A DNA stretch of 32,000 nucleotides from assembly GCF_000014785.1 (NCBI RefSeq), contig NC_008340.1:240001-272000 (forward strand), given 5' to 3'. A program made the translations under genes and the position numbers. Under the pieces are notes generated by a model that did not search any database, was not told where the DNA came from, and was given only the letters and a program-made list of their open reading frames with translations. Below are positions 16,750-32,000 of the stretch, piece after piece (position 1 is the first letter of the stretch; each line of letters opens with the position of its first letter). This stretch comes from Alkalilimnicola ehrlichii MLHE-1. Its GTDB lineage: Bacteria > Pseudomonadota > Gammaproteobacteria > Nitrococcales > Halorhodospiraceae.

Positions 16750-17132
16750 GCGACGAGCAGGAGCGCTACTGCATCGAGGTGGACGTGGATCCGGCCTACG
16801 TGGCGGATCAGTCTGATCCGGCCGAGGACCGCTACGTCTTCTCCTATACCATCACCATCAAGAACCTGGGCGCGGTGACCGCCCAGGTGGTCAGCCGCCA
16901 CTGGGTGATCACCGACGGCAGCGGTCACGAGCGCGAGGTGCGTGGCGAGGGTGTGGTCGGCGAGCAGCCCCGCATCAAGCCCGGCGAGGGCTTTCGCTAC
17001 ACCAGCGGGGCCATCCTGGAGACGCCGGTGGGCAGCATGCACGGCAGCTACCACCTGGTGGCCGAAGACGGCACGGTCTTCAACGCCGATATTCCCGCCT
17101 TTACCCTGGCTGTGCCGCACACGCTGCATTAA
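16746..17132 (+). CDS. apaG: ApaG (DUF525) protein
   Basis: 128 aa. Motifs [21 protein letters not shown] and [17 protein letters not shown] are typical of ApaG. ATGA overlap with the tal stop. Confidence 0.9.
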
Positions 17133-17179
17133 TCTGCCCACTCGGCGCGAACCCCAACACCAGCATCGGGAGTTGTACG

Positions 17180-18019
17180 TTGGCTGTCTACGCGATCGGC
17201 GATCTGCAGGGCTGTCTGTCTCCGCTGGAGGCGCTGCTGGAGCAGCTGCGCTTCGATCCCGCCCGGGACCGCATCTGGTTCGTGGGCGATCTGGTCAACC
17301 GGGGCCCCGATTCGGTACGGGTGTTGCGCTACGTGCGTGCCCTGGGCGAGGCCGCCGTCACCACCCTCGGCAACCACGACCTGCACCTGCTGGCGGTGTG
17401 GGCGGGCACGGCCCGGGCCAAGCGCAAGGACACCGTCCACCAGGTGCTGGATGCCCCCGATGGCGAGGAGCTTCTGCACTGGCTGCGCTTTCAGCACCTG
17501 ACCTGGCGCGACGACGATCTGGGTTACTTCATGGTTCATGCCGGGGTGCCGCCGGTGTGGAGCCTGGATGAGGCCGAGACCCGCGGCCGCGAGCTGGAGG
17601 CGGTGCTGCGCAGTGAGGACTACCTGGCCTTTTTCGAGAACATGTACGGCAACCAGCCCGACCGCTGGGATGAGGGGCTGACCGGTTGGGACCGGCTGCG
17701 CTATATCTGCAATGCCTTCACCCGCATGCGCTATGTGGACGCCGACGGCCGCCTGGACCTGCGTTGCAACAGCGCGCCGGGTAGCCAGCCGGATGGCCTC
17801 TACCCCTGGTACGAGGTGCGCGAACGCCTGCGCCCGGAGCCGGACCCGCTCACCATCGTCAGCGGCCACTGGTCCACCCTCGGGCTTTGCCAGCGCGGCG
17901 GCAATGTGGCCATCGACACCGGCTGCCTCTGGGGCGGCTCCCTTACCGCCCTGCGCCTGGACAGCGACGAGCGCGAGATCATCAGCCGCCCCTGCCCGGC
18001 CTTCCTGGAGCCGAAGTAG
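17180..18019 (+). CDS. apaH: bis(5'-nucleosyl)-tetraphosphatase (symmetrical)
   Basis: 279 aa with a TTG start. Metallophosphatase motifs [18 protein letters not shown] and GNHD. Confidence 0.9.
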
Positions 18020-25121: not shown

Positions 25122-25328
25122 ATGCACGCCGACGAGATACTCTCCACATATTTTTTGCCCGTGGGCCTGGGGTTTTTCATGGCCTATATGATGTTCATCA
25201 TCTGGAAGCTGGGTAAGGACTCCAAGGCTGGTAAATTCGGCATGATCGTGTTGTTCATTGTGCTCGGCTTTGGCATGTTCGGGTTTCTGGTCAAGACGAT
25301 CCTGGTCGAGGTGATGGGGATAGGATGA
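25122..25328 (+). CDS. small two-TM membrane protein, DUF2788-like
   Basis: The 68-aa product is MHADEILSTYFLPVGLGFFMAYMMFIIWKLGKDSKAGKFGMIVLFIVLGFGMFGFLVKTILVEVMGIG. Its stop overlaps the next start (ATGA). Confidence 0.6.
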   Translation: MHADEILSTYFLPVGLGFFMAYMMFIIWKLGKDSKAGKFGMIVLFIVLGFGMFGFLVKTILVEVMGIG

Positions 25329-26521
25329 AGGACGTGACGCGGGTGGAGGTCGCCGTCGTGGGCGGTGGCATGGTAGGCGCCGCGCTGGCGGCCCTGCTGG
25401 GCGACCAGGGGGTGCGGGTGGCGGTGCTGGAGGCGCAGCCACCGCAGCCCTTCGACCCGGCGCAGCCGCTCGACCTGCGGGTCTCGGCCATCAACGCCCA
25501 CTCGGAGGCGGTCTACCGGGCCGCCGGTGCCTGGGAGGGGATGCTCGCCCGGCGCGGCTGCCCCTACGACGAGGTACGGGTCTGGGACCAGGGCAGCACG
25601 GCGGTGACCCACTTCCACGCCCGCGACGTCGGTGCGCAGCAACTGGGGTGGTTCCTGGAGAACCGCATCATGCAGCTGGCGTTGCTGGACCGGTTGCAGG
25701 CGTTGCCGTCGGTGGAATGGCTTTGCCCGGCGCGGCCGGTGGCCCTGGAGCCCGAGCCCGATGCCCTGGGGCTGCGCCTGGAGGACGGGCGCCTGATCCG
25801 CGCCGATCTGGTGGTGGGGGCGGACGGCGCGCGCTCAGCGGTGCGGGCCATGGCGGGCATTGACGTGCAGGTGCACGACTACGGCCAGCACGCCCTGCTG
25901 ATCAACGTGCGCACGATGCTGCCTCACCAGAGCGTGACCTGGCAGCGTTTCACCCCGGCCGGCCCCCAGGCCTTCCTGCCGCTGCCGGGGCCGCACGCCT
26001 GCCTGGTCTGGTACGACGATCCCCAGGCCACCGGAATCCGCCTTGGGCTCGACGACGAGACCCTGCGTGGCGAGTTGGAGGCGGAGTTCCCGGAGGAGTT
26101 GGGCAGCCTGGAGGCGGTCCTGGCGCGAGGCGCCTTTCCCCTGCGCCGGACCCATGCCCAGAGCTACCGTGCGCATCGCATCGCGCTGGTTGGAGACGCG
26201 GCACATACCATTCACCCCCTGGCCGGTCAGGGGGTGAACCTGGGGCTGCAGGACGCCGAGGCGCTGGCCGGCCTGTTGTTGGAGGCCCACGCCGCCGGCC
26301 GTCCGCTGCACGGGGCGGGCCTGCTGGCGCGCTACGAGGCCCGCCGGCGGCCAGCCAACCTGATGATGATGCACGGCATGGACCTCTTCAAGGAGGTCTT
26401 CTGCAACGAAAATGAGCTGCTCCGGAGGCTGCGCCGCGCGGGCCTGTGGCTGGCGGATCACGCCGGTCCGGCCAAGGCGGTGGTGGCCCGGTACGCTGAG
26501 GGCGGGCGGCCCCCTCGGTGA
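25325..26521 (+). CDS. UbiH/UbiF/UbiI-family FAD-dependent ubiquinone-biosynthesis hydroxylase
   Basis: 398 aa. Motifs seen: VAVVGGGMVGAALAALL, GADGARSAVR, GDAAHTIHPLAGQGVNLG. Confidence 0.88.
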   Translation: MKDVTRVEVAVVGGGMVGAALAALLGDQGVRVAVLEAQPPQPFDPAQPLDLRVSAINAHSEAVYRAAGAWEGMLARRGCPYDEVRVWDQGSTAVTHFHARDVGAQQLGWFLENRIMQLALLDRLQALPSVEWLCPARPVALEPEPDALGLRLEDGRLIRADLVVGADGARSAVRAMAGIDVQVHDYGQHALLINVRTMLPHQSVTWQRFTPAGPQAFLPLPGPHACLVWYDDPQATGIRLGLDDETLRGELEAEFPEELGSLEAVLARGAFPLRRTHAQSYRAHRIALVGDAAHTIHPLAGQGVNLGLQDAEALAGLLLEAHAAGRPLHGAGLLARYEARRRPANLMMMHGMDLFKEVFCNENELLRRLRRAGLWLADHAGPAKAVVARYAEGGRPPR

Positions 26522-26589
26522 CCCTGACGCGCTGACGACTCGCCCCGCTGGCGGCGCCGTCGGCCGCGCAGACCGGCCTATGAAGTGCA

Positions 26590-26626
26590 GGCTCACGCCT
26601 CCTGGGAGGCGTGAGCCTTTGCTGTT
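26590..26626 (+). terminator. rho-independent terminator
   Basis: ggctcacgcctcc-tg-ggaggcgtgagcc (13-bp stem) is followed by tttgctgtt. Confidence 0.6.
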
Positions 26627-26657
26627 ATGAACCCGTTAAAAATGGAGGATTATCCGC

Positions 26658-27050
26658 ATGAAACAGTCGCTGTTCCAGGAGAAATACCCCATCTTCACCC
26701 TGGAGGTGGAGAAGGCCGAGACCACCTATCAGAGCGTGGATGACATCCTGGTCTACCTTAAGGAGCAGATCGAGGCCCACCCCAAGTGCCGCTTCATCGC
26801 GGAGTTTGACCACTTCAGCCACACCCGTGCCCTGCCGGATGCGGAGATCGCCCCGGAGATCAAGGACGCGAAGAACATCGTCTTCTGTTTCGGCATCAAG
26901 CTCCCGAACCCCCAGGTGATGGCGGTGCGCCCCCGCTCCATGGGCGTCACCGAGTTGGATGACCGGTTTGTGATTGCCTTCATGGAGGCCCCCATGCCGG
27001 TGGCCAACGACGCCATGGAGCGTTGGGCGAAGGGGGTCCGCAACCGCTGA
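26658..27050 (+). CDS. conserved hypothetical cytoplasmic protein (no family name recognised)
   Basis: 130 aa. SD GGAGG lies 8-9 nt upstream. Composition is clean and non-repetitive, with lower GC than its neighbours. Confidence 0.6.
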   Translation: MKQSLFQEKYPIFTLEVEKAETTYQSVDDILVYLKEQIEAHPKCRFIAEFDHFSHTRALPDAEIAPEIKDAKNIVFCFGIKLPNPQVMAVRPRSMGVTELDDRFVIAFMEAPMPVANDAMERWAKGVRNR

Positions 27051-27061
27051 CCGGACCAAGC

Positions 27062-27094
27062 AGAGGGCAGGGCCGTGCCGGCGCGCTGCCCTCT
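27062..27094. terminator. hairpin between convergent genes (AGAGGGCAG-N15-CTGCCCTCT)
   Basis: Seen directly in the sequence. U-tract is weak. Confidence 0.3.
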
Positions 27095-27141
27095 TGGGTG
27101 CCGGCCAGCGGCGCGGGTGTGCGCCGGGTCGGCGCGTTGGT

Positions 27142-27813
27142 TTAACGCCCCTCCTGGAAGGCCTCCTGCTCCAGCTTCATGAATTCCACCAGGGCGGCCA
27201 GCTCCTCCGAGTCCCAGTCCAAGGGCTCGGCGGCCATGGGTGAGACCATGCAGATCTGCACCATCTCGTCCAAGTGCACCTCGTTGAGGCCGAAATCCCG
27301 CTGGGCCATCTCCACGTGGTGGGGAAAGGGTTGGGCGAAGGTATCGGCATAACCGGCACCCTCCATGTGGCAACTGGCGCAGGCCAGGTTGTTGGTGGAC
27401 AGCTCCCGGTTATAGAACAGGTCCTCGCCCAGGGCGGCCAGTGCCTCAGGGTCGCCCTCGAAGGGCTGATAATCGGCGGGTCGTGTCACGGCGTCGCGCA
27501 GTGCCTCCCCGGCCTCGGCCTCTCCTTCGCCCTCTGCCTCGGCTTCACCCTCGGCCTCGGCTTCACCCTCGGCCTCACCCTCGGCTTCGGCTTCGGCTTC
27601 GCCCTCTGCGCGGGCCTCGGCTTCCGCCTCGCCCTCTGCGACGGGGATAAGGTACGCGGCACTGGGTGATGAGCCAGGCTCAACCGGTTGCGCGGCCATC
27701 ACGCCGGCCGAACTGTAGGCGGCCAATGCGATCAGCGGGGCCGAGGCAATGGCCCCGTAAGACAAGTTTCGAAGCAGGCGTTGTCGCTTGGCGTCGTTCT
27801 GCTCCATTTTCAT
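27142..27813 (-). CDS. exported monoheme cytochrome c (CCP/MauG-like heme domain) with N-terminal leader and poly(GEAE) acidic linker
   Basis: Start at MKMEQNDAKRQRLL (ATG 27813, SD GAGGAGGA; the track start at 27840 is TTG). It has LGEDLFYNRELSTNNLACASCH, and 46 aa of E/A/G repeat. 223 aa. Confidence 0.7.
   Translation of the reverse strand: MKMEQNDAKRQRLLRNLSYGAIASAPLIALAAYSSAGVMAAQPVEPGSSPSAAYLIPVAEGEAEAEARAEGEAEAEAEGEAEGEAEAEGEAEAEGEGEAEAGEALRDAVTRPADYQPFEGDPEALAALGEDLFYNRELSTNNLACASCHMEGAGYADTFAQPFPHHVEMAQRDFGLNEVHLDEMVQICMVSPMAAEPLDWDSEELAALVEFMKLEQEAFQEGR
27502..27639 (-). repeat. in-frame degenerate tandem repeat encoding (G/A)-E-A-E units
   Basis: Encodes AEGEAEAEARAEGEAEAEAEGEAEGEAEAEGEAEAEGEGEAEAGEA. 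It includes an exact 18-bp duplication, ggcttcaccctcggcctc x2. Synonymous codons otherwise vary. Confidence 0.8.
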
Positions 27814-27856
27814 AGGTTTCCTCCTCTGATGATCCGGCAATCGTGTTGCCTGGGGG

Positions 27857-29518
27857 TCACGCGGTTCCTTTCATGGCGGCCTCCTCACTGGGGTGGTGTT
27901 TGGGGGTGACTGGGTGAAAGGTGTCCGGCGACGCCCTGGGCCAGTACTCACGGAATACTGCCGGGTAGGCGGGGGCGCCGGACAGCAGCGCGTTCTTTTC
28001 AACGAAGGGGTAGAGTTCCGCGAAGCTCCGGACCTCGGTGCCGGACAGGCGCCGGTAGATATGGTCGGGTGTGAGCTGGTCGAGGTGGCTCAGGCCAGCG
28101 GCGGCCAGCAGGCTGCCGAGCGCCTCCACGGTCCCTGCGTGGAAGTTGCGTACTCGCAGCGCCTTGTCGCCCACGTGCAAGCCGCGGCTGCGCCGCCGGT
28201 CCTGGGTGGCCACCCCGCTGGGGCAGCGGTCGGTATGACAGCTCAGGGACTGGATGCAGCCGAGCGCGAACATGAAGCCACGGGCGGCATTGCACCAGTC
28301 CGCGCCCAGCGCCAGGGTGCGCGCGACCTTGAAGCCGCTGGTCAGTTTGCCGGCGGCCCCCAGGCGGATGTGGTCACGCAGGCCGGTGCCCACCAGGGTG
28401 TTGTGGACCAGCAGCAGGGCCTCGTCCAGCGGCATGCCCAGTCGGTTGATCGACTCCAGGGGCGCGGCACCGGTGCCTCCCTCACCGCCGTCCACGACAA
28501 TGAAATCCGGTCGCTCGTCGCTTGCCTGCATGGCCTTGGCCAGGGCGAACCACTCCCAGGGGTGGCCGATGGCCAGCTTGAAGCCCACCGGCTTGCCGCC
28601 GGAGAGTTCACGCAGTTGCCCGATGAACTGCATCAGCTCCCGGGGCGTGGAAAAGGCGGAATGGCGTGGCGGGGAGATCACGTCCTCACCCTCGGGCACG
28701 CCGCGGGCCGCAGCGATTTCCGGACTCACCTTGGCGGCGGGCAGGATGCCGCCATGCCCGGGTTTCGCGCCCTGGGAGAGCTTGATCTCAATCATGCGGA
28801 CGCTGTCCAGGCCGGCCGTCTCCGCGAAGCGTTCGGGGCTGAAGCTGCCATCCGGGGTCCGGCAGCCGAAATAACCGGAACCGATCTCCCAGACCAGGTC
28901 TCCGCCGTGTTCCAGGTGGTACCGGGAGATGCCTCCCTCGCCGGTGTCCTGATAGAAGCCGCCCAGCCGCGCGCCCTTGTTGAGGGCCAGGATGGCATTG
29001 GCGGAAAGGGCGCCGAAGCTCATGGCAGAGATGTTGAAGACGCTGGCCGAATAGGGTTGTTGGCAGCGACCGCCGATCTCCACTCGGTAGGCCGAGGGAT
29101 CAACGGCTACCGGTTGGACGGAATGGCTGACCCATTCGTAACCGTCGCCGTAGAGGTTCAGCAGGGAGCCAAAGGGGCGCTTGTCCAGTTGGTTCTTGGC
29201 CCGCTGGTAGACCACTGAGCGCTGTTCCCGGGAGAAGGGTCGCTCGTCGGTGTCCGATTCGATGAAGTACTGCCGGATTTCCGGGCCGATACCTTCCAGG
29301 CAGTAGCGCAAGTGAGCGATGACCGGGTAGTTGCGGCTGATGGTGCGGCGGGGCTGGAGCAGATCCCAGGTGCCCAGCAATGAGAGGCCGCCGAAGAGGG
29401 CCACGCCCCACCCCCAGGTGGCGCTGACCTGCAGGCACAGCAGCGAGATCACGAAGGCCGCGATACAGATCAGGTACGGGACATACCGCCCCGGCACTGG
29501 CCATAGCGTCTTGGACAT
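27857..29518 (-). CDS. FMN-binding glutamate synthase family protein (GltB FMN-domain homologue, N-terminal membrane anchor)
   Basis: Start at MSKTLWPVPG (ATG 29518, SD GGGGAG; the track start at 29557 is TTG). It has 2 N-terminal TM helices. Motifs seen: RNYPVIAHLRYCLEGIGPEIRQYF and VVDGGEGGTGAAP. Confidence 0.85.
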   Translation of the reverse strand: MSKTLWPVPGRYVPYLICIAAFVISLLCLQVSATWGWGVALFGGLSLLGTWDLLQPRRTISRNYPVIAHLRYCLEGIGPEIRQYFIESDTDERPFSREQRSVVYQRAKNQLDKRPFGSLLNLYGDGYEWVSHSVQPVAVDPSAYRVEIGGRCQQPYSASVFNISAMSFGALSANAILALNKGARLGGFYQDTGEGGISRYHLEHGGDLVWEIGSGYFGCRTPDGSFSPERFAETAGLDSVRMIEIKLSQGAKPGHGGILPAAKVSPEIAAARGVPEGEDVISPPRHSAFSTPRELMQFIGQLRELSGGKPVGFKLAIGHPWEWFALAKAMQASDERPDFIVVDGGEGGTGAAPLESINRLGMPLDEALLLVHNTLVGTGLRDHIRLGAAGKLTSGFKVARTLALGADWCNAARGFMFALGCIQSLSCHTDRCPSGVATQDRRRSRGLHVGDKALRVRNFHAGTVEALGSLLAAAGLSHLDQLTPDHIYRRLSGTEVRSFAELYPFVEKNALLSGAPAYPAVFREYWPRASPDTFHPVTPKHHPSEEAAMKGTA

Positions 29519-29553
29519 GGCGTGCTCCCCGGATCGGGTGGCCACCGACCGGG

Positions 29554-30135
29554 TCAACCGGCGGCGGCGTGAGCGGTGGTCCGTTCGCCGGCCCGCCAGT
29601 AACGCAGGGTCGACGGTGCCACCCCGAACGCCTCATCGGTCCGCAGACCGGCCTGCTCCGCCAGCATGGCGATCAGGGCCATGTGGTGGACCGTGTGGCT
29701 GAGCAGAAACATCAGTTCCCGCTGCAGGCTGGACGGAGTCCAGGTCCGTTGCGGGCCCGCCGACGTGTCGCAGACACAGGCGACCTGTACCGGGGTGTCC
29801 GGTGGCAGCGGGCCGATCTCCCGAGCCAGCCGATCGTCGAGTTCGGCCAACGCACGGAGGGCTTGCTCCGGGTCCTGCTCCAGGGCCTGATCGCGGGCCC
29901 GGCTGTCGTAATCCATTGCCCCCCAGGCGCCGGCGAGCAGGGACTGGACATGCTCCAGGATATGCCGGACCTGCCGCCCGATGCCGTTGCCGCCGTAAGG
30001 CCCGCTGCAAGCCCGGTAGCGCGCGGTGTCCAGGTCGCCGACCAGGTTGGCCAGTTGCCGGAGAAAATGGCGGTTATCGTCCACCAGGCTGACGGTGACG
30101 GGATGACCGTTCCTACATGCTTGTTGATACCCCAT
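29554..30135 (-). CDS. DinB-fold (DinB_2-like) metal-dependent protein
   Basis: Start at MGYQQACRNG (ATG 30135; the track start at 30189 is TTG). His triad candidates RHILEHV and LSHTVHHMA. 193 aa. Confidence 0.65.
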   Translation of the reverse strand: MGYQQACRNGHPVTVSLVDDNRHFLRQLANLVGDLDTARYRACSGPYGGNGIGRQVRHILEHVQSLLAGAWGAMDYDSRARDQALEQDPEQALRALAELDDRLAREIGPLPPDTPVQVACVCDTSAGPQRTWTPSSLQRELMFLLSHTVHHMALIAMLAEQAGLRTDEAFGVAPSTLRYWRAGERTTAHAAAG

Positions 30136-30283
30136 GACTTCATCCTTTGGCTGGGCAGGCGACCCGGCGGGGCCGCGTCGTGTCGGCAACCCCCGGGGCC
30201 GGTGTCATCGCCTGCGCTGCAATGGGATTGACCTCCTTCTGCCCGGGCGGACGGGGGTCACAGGCGAATGGGGCGGGGCGGCT

Positions 30284-30595
30284 TCAGTAGCCGCCCTCAC
30301 CCTCGGCCTCGCCTTCCGCTTCTCCTTCGGCCTCACCTTCCGCCTCACCTTCCGCTTCGCCCTCGGCCTCGGCCTCCGCCTCACCGGCGGCTTCCGCCTC
30401 GCCGACCGCGGCCTCGGCTTCGCCCTCGCCCTCCGCGGCGGCCATCATCTGATAGCCGCTATCGGCCACCGCGTCCGACATGACGGCGTGAATGCCGGCG
30501 CCACCGCCGACAATCGCCAGAACGGGGACGGTGTAGGCGACACTGCGCGACAAGGTGCGCAGCAGTTGCTGACGGACTGTCTTTTCCTCACTCAT
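30284..30595 (-). CDS. small exported poly(Gly-Glu-Ala-Glu) protein, paralogous to the N-terminal part of the cytochrome at 27142..27813
   Basis: Start at MSEEKTVRQQLLRTLSRSVAYTVPVLAIVGGGAG (ATG 30595, SD AGGAGG). The C-terminal 51 aa are almost only G/E/A and end in GGY. 103 aa. Confidence 0.6.
   Translation of the reverse strand: MSEEKTVRQQLLRTLSRSVAYTVPVLAIVGGGAGIHAVMSDAVADSGYQMMAAAEGEGEAEAAVGEAEAAGEAEAEAEGEAEGEAEGEAEGEAEGEAEGEGGY
30290..30442 (-). repeat. in-frame degenerate 12-bp tandem repeat encoding (GEAE)n
   Basis: Encodes AAAEGEGEAEAAVGEAEAAGEAEAEAEGEAEGEAEGEAEGEAEGEAEGEGG. Confidence 0.8.
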
Positions 30596-30694
30596 ATTGC
30601 CTCCTGTCACTCGGTTGCGGACCCACCCGCATTTTCGAAGATCATGACGACCTTCCTGGGTTCAGAATGACCCGGGAGTCCCCCGGGGAAGGGA

Positions 30695-31120
30695 TCACGC
30701 ATCGTTTCCTTTTGCTAACAAGTAAAGGGCCACGAATAGCAGGCTGACCTGGAACATCATGCCGCCCATCGGGTGGGTCGCCGTTGGCAGAAAGTGCCAC
30801 TGGCCCCAATGCGCCATGAAAATAGCGCCCAGAAGGACCGGCACGGTGGCCAGCGCACCCAGCCGCGTCACCCAGCCGTTGGTGAAGGCACCTACAACCA
30901 CCAGGATGCCGGCGCTGATCTCCGCCAGCGCCACCAGCAGTGCGATGACCAGGGGGAGACCCATCATCTCCGCCCAGGGGCCGATGCCCGCGCCCAGGAA
31001 TTTGTCGACACCCATGTAGGTGAAGACAGAGAAGATCACCGCCCGGAGTAACCAATGGGCATGGCGCTCCACCGTCTGCAGTTCTGTGTTGGCCGTCGAA
31101 ATTCCGGTTGTCATAAGCAT
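30695..31120 (-). CDS. DoxX family membrane protein
   Basis: Start at MLMTTGIST (ATG 31120, SD GAGGGTGG). 141 aa with 4 TM helices. GVDKFLG is typical of DoxX. Confidence 0.8.
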   Translation of the reverse strand: MLMTTGISTANTELQTVERHAHWLLRAVIFSVFTYMGVDKFLGAGIGPWAEMMGLPLVIALLVALAEISAGILVVVGAFTNGWVTRLGALATVPVLLGAIFMAHWGQWHFLPTATHPMGGMMFQVSLLFVALYLLAKGNDA

Positions 31121-31169
31121 CTGTTGCCACCCTCTGTTGTTGGCTAAGAAAACGCTGAAGGGCCGCCTT

Positions 31170-31249
31170 TCGTCATTGCGATTGCCGCGACGTGTTGCCC
31201 GTAGTGGGGCGAATGGATTGCTTCGTCGCTTCGCTCCTCGCAATGACGA
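31170..31249. repeat. hairpin-forming repeat containing the widespread cgtcattgcga / tcgcaatgacg motif
   Basis: A 12-bp perfect inverted repeat, tcgtcattgcga (31170-31181) / tcgcaatgacga (31238-31249). The interior ggattgcttcgtcgcttcgctcctcgcaatgacg translates to the pseudo-peptide DCFVASLLAMT. Confidence 0.4.
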
Positions 31250-31349
31250 GGTGTGGGAGCCCTTAACGTCCGATCCTTGATGCCTACAATAGAGGTGTGG
31301 GTCAGCGCCCGGTATCCGTAATAACACGCACTGCCGGGTGCACGGTTAA

Positions 31350-32000
31350 CTAGTTCGCTACTTTCTCCTTCCTCCCTTCCGGGTTGATCTCGCGCAGAAC
31401 GTCGTTCGCCGCACGGAGGGCGAGGTAGAGGTCGTCCCGATGCCCCACTGCGTAGACGGGTCGACCGGCCACCCAGTCGGCAAACTGTGACAGCGTTCGG
31501 CCATCCAGCCCGGTACCATCGTGGCGGGCCGTCTCCGGCAGCAGGTGGCCCAAGGCCTCGCGCAGGCCCAGCTGGCGGGCGATGCCCTGATCCCCGCTCG
31601 CGTCGTCGGGGGCGGCAATAAGGATCGCGGCCACCTCAACGGCATCGCGCGCCGGCGTGCCGGTCGCCGGCACCAGGTGGCCACGCTGGCCGAACCACCA
31701 AAGATGGGCAGTGGCGTCCGGCCCGTCGGGCTTTTCACCGGGCCGTGGGGTTGGCGCCGGCGTCGATGATCGTGGCTGGCGGAGCGGCAGCCCGAGGGAG
31801 CGGGCCCGGCCGCTGCCTTCCAGCGCAATGGCCGCGCCGCCGCTGGCGGTCTGGCCGTTCTCCCGGGCCAGGGCGAGGGCCAGGGCATCATCGCCGGTTG
31901 TATCGCCGCGGCAGACCAGCAGGGCGGCACCGGGATGGGACGGGCCGGCCGGGACCAGGGCGCCGGTGATCGCAATCTCCCCGACGTCGGGGGTGCGCCG
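31350..32000 (-). CDS. hypothetical protein, C-terminal 216 aa (ORF open to the right edge)
   Basis: The frame of track ORF 31350..31673 (whose start is really an internal GTG) stays open up to 32000. It reads RRTPDVGEIAITGALVPAGPSHPGAALLVCRGDTTGDDALALALARENGQ...HLWWFGQRGHLVPATG. Third positions are G/C-rich. No family recognised. Confidence 0.5.
   Translation of the reverse strand, partial: RRTPDVGEIAITGALVPAGPSHPGAALLVCRGDTTGDDALALALARENGQTASGGAAIALEGSGRARSLGLPLRQPRSSTPAPTPRPGEKPDGPDATAHLWWFGQRGHLVPATGTPARDAVEVAAILIAAPDDASGDQGIARQLGLREALGHLLPETARHDGTGLDGRTLSQFADWVAGRPVYAVGHRDDLYLALRAANDVLREINPEGRKEKVAN

Follow-up and report, generated by a model that had tools for sequence, protein, structure and literature searches.

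What links a DoxX-family membrane protein, a small and extremely acidic protein, a DinB-fold protein, a glutamate-synthase-like (GltS-like) protein with a flavin mononucleotide (FMN) domain and a c-type cytochrome with an acidic linker, whose genes lie side by side in Alkalilimnicola ehrlichii MLHE-1? The genes occupy one end of a 32,000-nucleotide stretch of contig NC_008340.1 (positions 240,001 to 272,000 of the forward strand), referred to here as the window, and an original prediction made from the DNA alone had described them as a five-gene redox operon. Our analysis points to a different answer, centred on a sixth gene that lies directly upstream and runs past the end of the window. It encodes a putative ligase that combines a tubulin tyrosine ligase (TTL) domain with a candidate recognition element (RRE) of the kind used by enzymes acting on peptides that are made by ribosomes and modified after translation (RiPPs). 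We consider it probable, at about 0.6, that this protein is an RRE-guided ligase of the TTL-like (TTLL) type that modifies Glu-repeat proteins destined for export, its substrates being the acidic protein of 103 aa and the cytochrome c with the acidic linker.

The ligase gene, its neighbourhood and its partners

The genes concerned are listed below in window coordinates.

31350-32000, minus strand: TTL-RRE ligase, last 216 codons, the gene continuing past the window end
30695-31120, minus strand: DoxX-family membrane protein, 141 aa (PF07681, 36.8 bits against a cutoff of 23.6), three long hydrophobic stretches
30284-30595, minus strand: acidic precursor-like protein, 103 aa, with leader RQQLLRTLSRSVAYTVP and a hydrophobic stretch, then a 52-aa (GEAE)n core with terminal GGY
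29554-30135, minus strand: DinB_2-fold putative metalloenzyme, 193 aa (PF12867, 27.1 bits against a cutoff of 24.8)
27857-29518, minus strand: membrane-anchored GltS-like FMN-domain protein, 553 aa (PF01645, E=7.5e-86), hydrophobic N-terminal segment at residues 8-42
27142-27813, minus strand: leader, 47-aa GEAE repeat and monoheme SoxA/TsdA-type cytochrome c, 223 aa, with a single CASCH and a Cys in MVQICM

The coordinates of the open reading frames (ORFs) and their Pfam matches bear out the description of five co-directional minus-strand genes of the families first named, and comparison of the two sequences likewise confirmed that the 103-aa protein and the cytochrome c share a leader and a GEAE repeat. 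The reported gap range of 18 to 148 nt varies with start-codon choice; the start codons of the public annotation give 99, 148, 35 and 43 nt. The five genes are real, yet the unit is larger than proposed: they form the tail of a cluster of at least six genes, the sixth being the upstream ligase gene, separated from doxX by 229 nt. The complete gene (829 aa; L006:5680-8169, P0121) stands directly upstream of doxX in two A. ehrlichii assemblies, and the translation of window positions 31350-32000 is identical to its end. A metagenomic relative (L001, 85% identical) carries the same five genes in the same order behind an 816-aa TTL-domain protein with a weak PqqD match.

Residues 64-345 of the ligase match Pfam TTL (PF03133, E=7.7e-56) and residues 438-502 match PqqD (PF05402, 31.6 bits against a gathering cutoff of 23.4), with further weak matches to HvfC and lasso RRE models, while the C-terminal ~300 residues gave no family match. 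A phmmer search against the PDB returned TTLL6 (1e-37), TTLL7 (3.5e-32), TTLL3 (9e-13) and TTL (4.5e-9). On these scores the ligase is nearest, among solved structures, to the polyglutamylases TTLL6 and TTLL7, with the glycylase TTLL3 and TTL much further away. The AlphaFold2 model of the protein (mean predicted local distance difference test score, pLDDT, 80.7; predicted template modelling score 0.77) matched TTLL6 in Foldseek with E~1e-25 and a TM-score of 0.77-0.80 over ~425 columns, and in its residues 421-498 four beta strands precede three helices, an arrangement compatible with an RRE fold. Modelled alone, the C-terminal domain (pLDDT 83.7) gave weak fold matches to PEPCK (E=3e-3) and to HprK/HPr kinase (E=0.58); it has no conserved P-loop, and its profile returned nothing meaningful from PDB sequences. 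The TTL core is followed by an RRE and a weakly PEPCK/HprK-like domain, and not by a cationic microtubule-binding domain as in the TTLL tubulin modifiers. In the public annotation, many TTL-RRE homologues (e.g. P0129, P0162, P0226) are named 'amylase' by NCBI, while further ones bear the name 'tubulin polyglutamylase TTLL5' or 'PqqD family chaperone'; the first of these names looks like a propagated annotation error.

A relative of the ligase is encoded in at least 215 species genomes, as judged from a scan of one genome per species. We fetched 80 loci from the 215 genomes, annotated them by tblastn with the window proteins and a composition filter for Glu/Gly/Ala repeats, and counted linkage in those 60 that had 5 kb or more on each side. 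The hosts, mostly halophilic and alkaliphilic taxa, include Marinobacter, Halomonas and its allies, Ectothiorhodospiraceae, Aquisalimonas, Natronospira and the alphaproteobacteria Robiginitomaculum and Algimonas, among others. The following were found within 5 kb of the ligase gene.

GEAE-repeat ORF: 57/60 loci
At least two GEAE-repeat ORFs: 26/60 loci
DinB: 50/60 loci
Cytochrome c domain (leader-GEAE-cytochrome c): 35/60 loci
DoxX: 11/60 loci
GltS-like protein: 6/60 loci

The cluster is thus found in other genomes, as the expectation of conservation outside A. ehrlichii had it. Its gene order and orientation vary among Marinobacter, Halomonas, Ectothiorhodospiraceae and Robiginitomaculum, which argues against simple inherited synteny, and in most Robiginitomaculum loci a GEAE-cytochrome was the only linked partner detected. 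Chance co-location of ligase and GEAE proteins was considered and ruled out by the frequency of their linkage combined with the varied gene orders. Leader-bearing homologues in 57 of the 60 related loci identify the 103-aa ORF as a real gene rather than a chance ORF. That ligase and GEAE proteins form an enzyme-substrate cluster appears to us very probable.

The leaders of the GEAE proteins are strikingly uniform. An alignment of 94 unique leaders gave the motif [RK]-x-x-L(94/94)-L-x-[KR]-L(88)-[SA]-[RK](92)-[GQN]-[LI]-x-Y(71)-[TS]-x-P(93), in which the conserved positions are numbered as L at 3 and 7, R/K at 9 and P at 16, followed by ~10 hydrophobic residues and then by small residues resembling a signal-peptidase site. 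Judged from this alignment, conservation of the leader goes well beyond that of a generic signal peptide. Measured against the twin-arginine translocation (Tat) motif S/T-R-R-x-F-L-K, which stands before a hydrophobic region, the leaders have RR in 25/94 and KR, RK or KK in 40/94, the remaining 29/94 having a single basic residue; RRSFLK and SRREFVR are found in leaders of distant homologues. The cores vary in length and sequence and consist overall of 43% Glu, 27% Gly and 23% Ala. The 52-aa A. ehrlichii core contains nothing but E21/A17/G12/V1/Y1, and the whole 103-aa protein, which belongs to no Pfam or NCBIfam family, has 25 D+E against 4 K+R. Small cores contain no Cys, and Lys, Ser and Thr are all missing from 25 of 65. 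Ribosomal precursors and the enzymes that modify them are typically recognised by just this pattern, a conserved leader joined to a hypervariable core and encoded beside an enzyme with an RRE.

The leader style extends beyond the GEAE proteins. A search of 1.84 billion cluster representatives with the ligase yielded 616 clusters at E<=1e-30; the best 150 of these comprised ~45 full-length matches and a tail at ~31-39% identity, whose alignments often stop near query residue 500-530 and so take in the TTL core together with the RRE region. We examined four such distant TTL-RRE proteins (identity 33-36%, C-terminal domain unmatched), and each adjoins a small ORF with the same style of leader and a different, Glu-containing core.

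L090:4740-4991: leader RRSFLKRFAGAAVFSAP, core HMTDEHMTDEH
L091:6913-7200: leader SRREFVRRVSQTAAFATP, core acidic and in part helical-looking
L092:1770-2072: leader TRREAIGKFKKAAVYLPP, core (GGPPTEAKRK)n
L093:2-292: leader SRLLLARLARGAAYVPP, non-repetitive Cys-containing core with terminal CEVGET

This suggests a precursor family much broader than the GEAE type. A profile of the leader itself (44 residues, 47 alignment columns) gave no match at E<=1 among 5.8 billion proteins, being too short for a database of that size.

Active site and predicted chemistry

We counted residue conservation in 118 full-length ligase homologues and transferred the determinants of regioselectivity and donor binding described for TTLL6 (Mahalingan et al., 10.1101/2020.06.07.139295) to the ligase via a HMMER alignment. 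The ATP- and Mg-binding residues K137, K178, R182, D300, E313 and N315 are invariant (118/118) and align with the KPDSG and LLEVN motifs of TTLL6; from its sequence, the ligase domain looks active. The positions near the acceptor and donor compare as follows.

TTLL6 C179, near the acceptor: ligase position 142, Ala or Ser in the 118 homologues
TTLL6 Q180, regioselectivity (Arg in initiases): ligase R143, R in 112 and K in 6
TTLL6 H362, regioselectivity: ligase L316, L in 118/118
TTLL6 K283, holds the donor gamma-carboxylate: ligase F240, F in 118/118
TTLL6 K377, holds the donor gamma-carboxylate: probably ligase K337 (matched by motif only), K in 118/118

TTLL6 has been engineered into an initiase by the substitutions C179A/Q180R/H362I (10.1101/2020.06.07.139295), and this mutant outscored wild-type TTLL6 against the bacterial ligase as a query. 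As ligase positions 142, 143 and 316 match both the natural and the engineered branch initiases, the predicted reaction is isopeptide ligation on internal Glu gamma-carboxylates. We rate the ligation of amino acids to Glu side chains by this enzyme at even odds or slightly above. The absence of nucleophilic side chains from many cores means that a free amine donor is needed and that intramolecular ester or amide cross-links are impossible there. Because the K283 equivalent is Phe, the donor amino acid may not be glutamate. The donor pocket reads as a hybrid, unlike the canonical glutamylase site, and we leave the donor unpredicted. In a more tentative reading of the Lys-to-Phe change, it may be an unusual amino acid, and a thiol-bearing donor would fit the accessory genes whose families are thiol-related (DinB, DoxX, AhpD-like, SoxA-like).

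In the mechanism that we propose, the RRE would bind the family-specific, signal-peptide-like leader in the cytoplasm, and the ligase would use ATP to join free amino acids by isopeptide bonds to Glu gamma-carboxyls in the (GEAE)n tract, which is similar to the tubulin tails, rich in Gly and Glu, on which eukaryotic TTLLs act. Export of the products by the Sec or Tat pathway would follow. For the cytochrome, the c-type heme motif implies export, and its destination would be the periplasm since heme attachment needs that compartment. There the products would be strongly modified polyanionic proteins or would serve as a tether for a His/Cys-ligated heme domain, while DinB would act as a conserved second tailoring or partner enzyme and DoxX and the GltS-like FMN protein would be additions in the Alkalilimnicola lineage. 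As for physiology, it is tempting to speculate about a polyanionic or cation-binding periplasmic protein or a low-potential heme tether in halo-alkaliphiles.

Several points weigh against this mechanism. The modification chemistry is drawn throughout from homology, and the canonical glutamylase donor site with its two Lys residues is not present, as the invariant Phe occupies one of the two positions. The RRE assignment is based on the 31.6-bit Pfam match and the secondary structure of the model, and the leader, although Tat-like, is inconsistently twin-arginine. A cytoplasmic ATP-dependent ligase requires that its exported substrates be modified before translocation; branched chains might hinder export by Sec, the route that c-type cytochromes normally use. 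The roles of DinB, the C-terminal domain of the ligase, DoxX and the GltS-like protein are left unexplained. Finally, the putative operon has a gap of 229 nt between the ligase gene and doxX, and a promoter and terminator scan of window positions 26500-32000 gave signals not above shuffled expectation.

Accessory genes and competing explanations

Among the partners of the ligase, only the GEAE proteins are more conserved than DinB. All 60 linked DinB homologues keep H59, H63, H148, H151, H152, R58, R80 and R82, as would fit an active metalloenzyme of the DinB fold; a sequence search with the DinB protein against the PDB returned noise only. The cytochrome domain matches PF21342 (SoxA-TsdA_cyt-c) with 31.1 bits against a cutoff of 27, its match to PF03150 being limited to the heme motif. 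Among 51 homologues, CxxCH is present in 50, M[VI]QxCM in 49 and GEAE repeats in 48, so that the domain is fused to a leader and GEAE tract in 48/51. In an alignment to Rhodovulum SoxA (1h31) with a weak E-value, CxxCH and the conserved Cys fall on H80 and C114, the latter of which we take to be the ligand of heme 1, a role for which no confirmation was found in the papers searched. Cys-ligated hemes define the SoxA family (PMC4423706). In Halomonas salifodinae (L086:~17000-17610), a homologue of the cytochrome domain lies 7 kb from the ligase gene and has an ordinary signal peptide and (NPCAAA)n in place of the leader and GEAE tract.

DoxX and the GltS-like protein are lineage-specific accessories and do not form a conserved redox chain. 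In the second A. ehrlichii assembly (GCA_049200435.1, L005:7343-8565), doxX is split by a ~1.15-kb IS3-type insertion sequence encoding a 107-aa OrfA and a 300-aa integrase, and bufferin clusters, too, can dispense with DoxX (PMC11626156). That assembly also has a DDE transposase upstream of the ligase gene, the remainder of the cluster being intact. The GltS-like protein, which is 100% identical to the MLHE-1 entry, scored 147 bits against the GltB equivalog NF008730 (cutoff 1047) and has only the PF01645 FMN domain, and so does not have the architecture of a glutamate synthase. The nearest homologues sampled (67-70% identity; Sediminicurvatus/Spiribacter halobius, Marinobacter salarius) are unlinked to any cluster gene, and the GltS-like genes of Marinobacter that do lie beside or near the ligase gene belong to a separate paralogue clade. 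The occurrence of linked copies in two separate clades indicates that the association with the locus arose at least twice. We rejected the GltS-like gene as an anchor for the cluster, since its closest sampled homologues outside the 85%-identity relative have no cluster. On Marinobacter salarius-type contigs (L003, L004, 866-7647) the unlinked GltS-like homologue has as neighbours a BCCT transporter and three genes, of the RimB-like, 7TM-transglutaminase and ATPgrasp_ST kinds; this trio is another predicted ATP-grasp amidoligase system, and its proximity may be coincidence.

De novo clustering of all neighbouring ORFs revealed no further universal partner. Neighbours that recur in particular lineages within ~7 kb (L010-L089) are Peptidase_C92 (25 loci), an AhpD-like CxxC protein (22 loci), an extracytoplasmic function (ECF) sigma factor with a zf-HC2 anti-sigma factor (32 loci) and DedA/VTT proteins. 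The first of these, a permuted papain amidase of the YiiX type, occurs in several genera in varied arrangement, and a role as eraser or leader peptidase is possible. Downstream in the window, and convergent with the cluster, lie a UbiH/UbiF-family ubiquinone hydroxylase gene (25325-26521, plus strand) and a gene for a DUF6858 protein (26658-27050, plus strand; E=2e-62). DUF6858 was seen only in the A. ehrlichii locus among those fetched, and neither neighbour appears to be part of the cluster. An Rfam scan of the whole window gave no matches.

The original prediction saw a self-contained membrane redox module, in which the FMN enzyme, a quinone-linked DoxX and a periplasmic heme would serve sulfur, thiol or oxidative-stress chemistry and the acidic tails would act in docking. 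The genes are indeed co-directional and closely spaced, the DoxX and DinB families include thiol- or quinone-related members, CxxC AhpD-like genes recur near the locus (22 loci), and GltS-like genes near the TTL locus are found in two separate clades. Furthermore, the cytochrome domain appears to fall in the Cys-ligated SoxA/TsdA family, which acts on thiosulfate (PMC4423706). Against such a module stand the linkage counts, with GltS-like genes at 6/60 and DoxX at 11/60 loci and cytochrome-bearing loci usually without both, as well as the insertion sequence that disrupts doxX in one A. ehrlichii assembly. The proposed check of synteny around the closest GltS-like homologues came out the same way: only the 85%-identity relative retains the cluster, and the sampled genes of Spiribacter/Sediminicurvatus and Marinobacter salarius are unlinked. 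The module also takes no account of the TTL-RRE partner, which is present almost universally, or of the conserved leader, and we regard it as distinctly unlikely. A part of the original prediction survives in altered form, namely the idea, put forward as very speculative, that the Glu-rich tails are substrates or docking partners of the GltS-like enzyme: substrates they probably are, with the TTLL-like ligase as the likely enzyme. We give a comparably low chance to the view that the acidic proteins are unmodified periplasmic polyanions of halophiles and alkaliphiles, with the TTL-RRE protein acting only as a leader-binding export chaperone or regulator. Dedicated Tat-signal-binding chaperones exist, the leader resembles a Tat signal, the hosts are mainly halophilic and alkaliphilic, and NCBI names the TTL-RRE protein 'peptide modification chaperone'; the invariance of ATP-, Mg- and acceptor-binding residues in 118 homologues, however, would be unexpected for a non-catalytic chaperone.

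Two further alternatives accept an active ligase and differ in the bond that it forms. It could act solely on the C-terminal alpha-carboxylate, adding a single residue in the manner of TTL or, like RimK on ribosomal protein S6, a tail. Both of these enzymes are terminal ligases (PMC4431377), and some small precursors end in GGY or SGY, recalling the -EEY of tubulin, while others end in -AEG. In the cytochrome substrates, however, the repeat lies within the chain, which ends in a folded domain of unrelated kind, and across the TTLL family Arg at the Q180 equivalent and Leu at the H362 equivalent mark isopeptide initiases, not alpha-elongases. Exclusive terminal ligation is thus improbable in our estimate, with a small share of the probability left to it. 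Graspetide-like cross-linking, with intramolecular esters or amides formed within the repeats and no external donor, is the usual chemistry of ATP-grasp RiPP enzymes (PMC8939145), and the GEAKGEAE units of Marinobacter cores do offer a Lys. The A. ehrlichii core has neither Lys, Ser nor Thr, and the same is true of 25/65 small cores; on this composition we rejected graspetide-type cyclisation for such cores. With an enzyme that belongs to the TTL/TTLL clade and not to the graspetide ligases, this chemistry is very improbable for the system as a whole.

Significance and relation to known systems

If the inferred leader-guided ligation to internal Glu side chains is correct, bacterial TTL-family proteins gain a concrete substrate and a testable reaction, and the cluster would allow TTLL regioselectivity, and how the tubulin code first evolved, to be studied in a simple bacterial model. 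RRE-guided protein modification would acquire a new enzyme class, extending the bufferin-like theme of signal-peptide precursors modified before export, and a full-length c-type cytochrome would become an apparent RiPP-style substrate. Because many halophilic and alkaliphilic Gammaproteobacteria and some Alphaproteobacteria carry the system, it may be of consequence for the cell envelope at high salt or pH. Whether it is the first recognised prokaryotic TTLL-type system with native substrates, placing amino-acid branches on Glu residues of exported Gly/Glu-rich tracts including that of a cytochrome c, is a more tentative proposal, to which we give somewhat less than even odds. On that proposal the preference of TTLLs for GE-rich sequences resembling tubulin tails would predate tubulin modification, and the cluster would define a new RiPP-like class with Tat/Sec-type leaders and a bacterial 'glutamylation-like code' for periplasmic proteins. 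A bacterial origin of TTL domains has been proposed by Aravind and colleagues (PMC3495828, citing Iyer et al. 2009), and the literature examined gives no cognate bacterial substrate for TTL-family proteins. In line with the original prediction, the searchable literature, an RRE and a graspetide survey included, yielded neither a described pathway that has these genes nor any description of a TTL-RRE/Glu-repeat system; the amidoligase paper of Iyer et al. (2009), which possibly mentions homologues, lies outside this literature.

Among bacterial systems, the bufferin/oxazolin clusters comprise an MNIO enzyme, a DUF2063 RRE partner, DoxX and precursors with Sec signals, and DoxX is dispensable for modification (PMC11626156, PMC12452194). 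They share with the present cluster small signal-peptide precursors, the cytoplasmic modification with RRE help that is proposed here, frequent DoxX and nearby ECF sigma/anti-sigma genes (PMC11626156, PMC12452194). Their cores carry Cys motifs and are modified by an MNIO, whereas the cores here are Glu repeats without Cys, beside an ATP-grasp ligase, and neither MNIO (DUF692) nor DUF2063 genes were found in the window or in L006. RimK, with its substrate RpsF (S6), and other bacterial ATP-grasp peptide-tagging enzymes likewise add amino acids post-translationally to an acidic segment. RimK, however, belongs to another ATP-grasp family and acts, with no RRE or leader, on the C-terminus of one ribosomal protein, a cytoplasmic substrate. 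The graspetides (microviridin-type RiPPs) resemble the proposed system in that an ATP-grasp enzyme, guided by the leader of a ribosomal precursor, modifies Glu/Asp side chains, and differ in their intramolecular ester or amide rings and their ATP-grasp clade, the cores here often being without a nucleophilic side chain. As for the cytochrome, its domain passes the PF21342 cutoff and its CxxCH and conserved Cys align, with a weak E-value, with heme 1 of SoxA; unlike SoxA/TsdA proteins, it is a single heme domain with no SoxX or second heme and with a leader and GEAE tract in front.

The closest relatives remain the eukaryotic TTLLs (TTLL6, TTLL7, TTLL4, TTLL3), which have the same Pfam family, fold and ATP/Mg residues as the ligase. 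The ligase also carries the Arg/hydrophobic initiase signature at the positions of TTLL6 Q180 and H362, and its presumed substrate is, like the tubulin tails, a disordered Gly/Glu-rich acidic tract. In contrast to the microtubule-binding domain of the TTLLs, the enzyme of these bacterial hosts has a fused PqqD-type RRE that would read an N-terminal leader; its substrates would be exported proteins including a cytochrome c instead of tubulin, one of the two Lys residues that hold the donor glutamate is an invariant Phe, and an extra C-terminal domain of ~300 aa is present. In outline, the proposed system would work as a TTLL branch initiase, be targeted as RiPP enzymes are and share its organisation with the bufferin clusters. 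The system is neither a canonical glutamylase by its donor site nor a tubulin modifier, a bufferin cluster or a glutamate synthase. By its domain matches, it belongs to the TTL Pfam family and counts, in the broad sense, as an RRE-dependent system.

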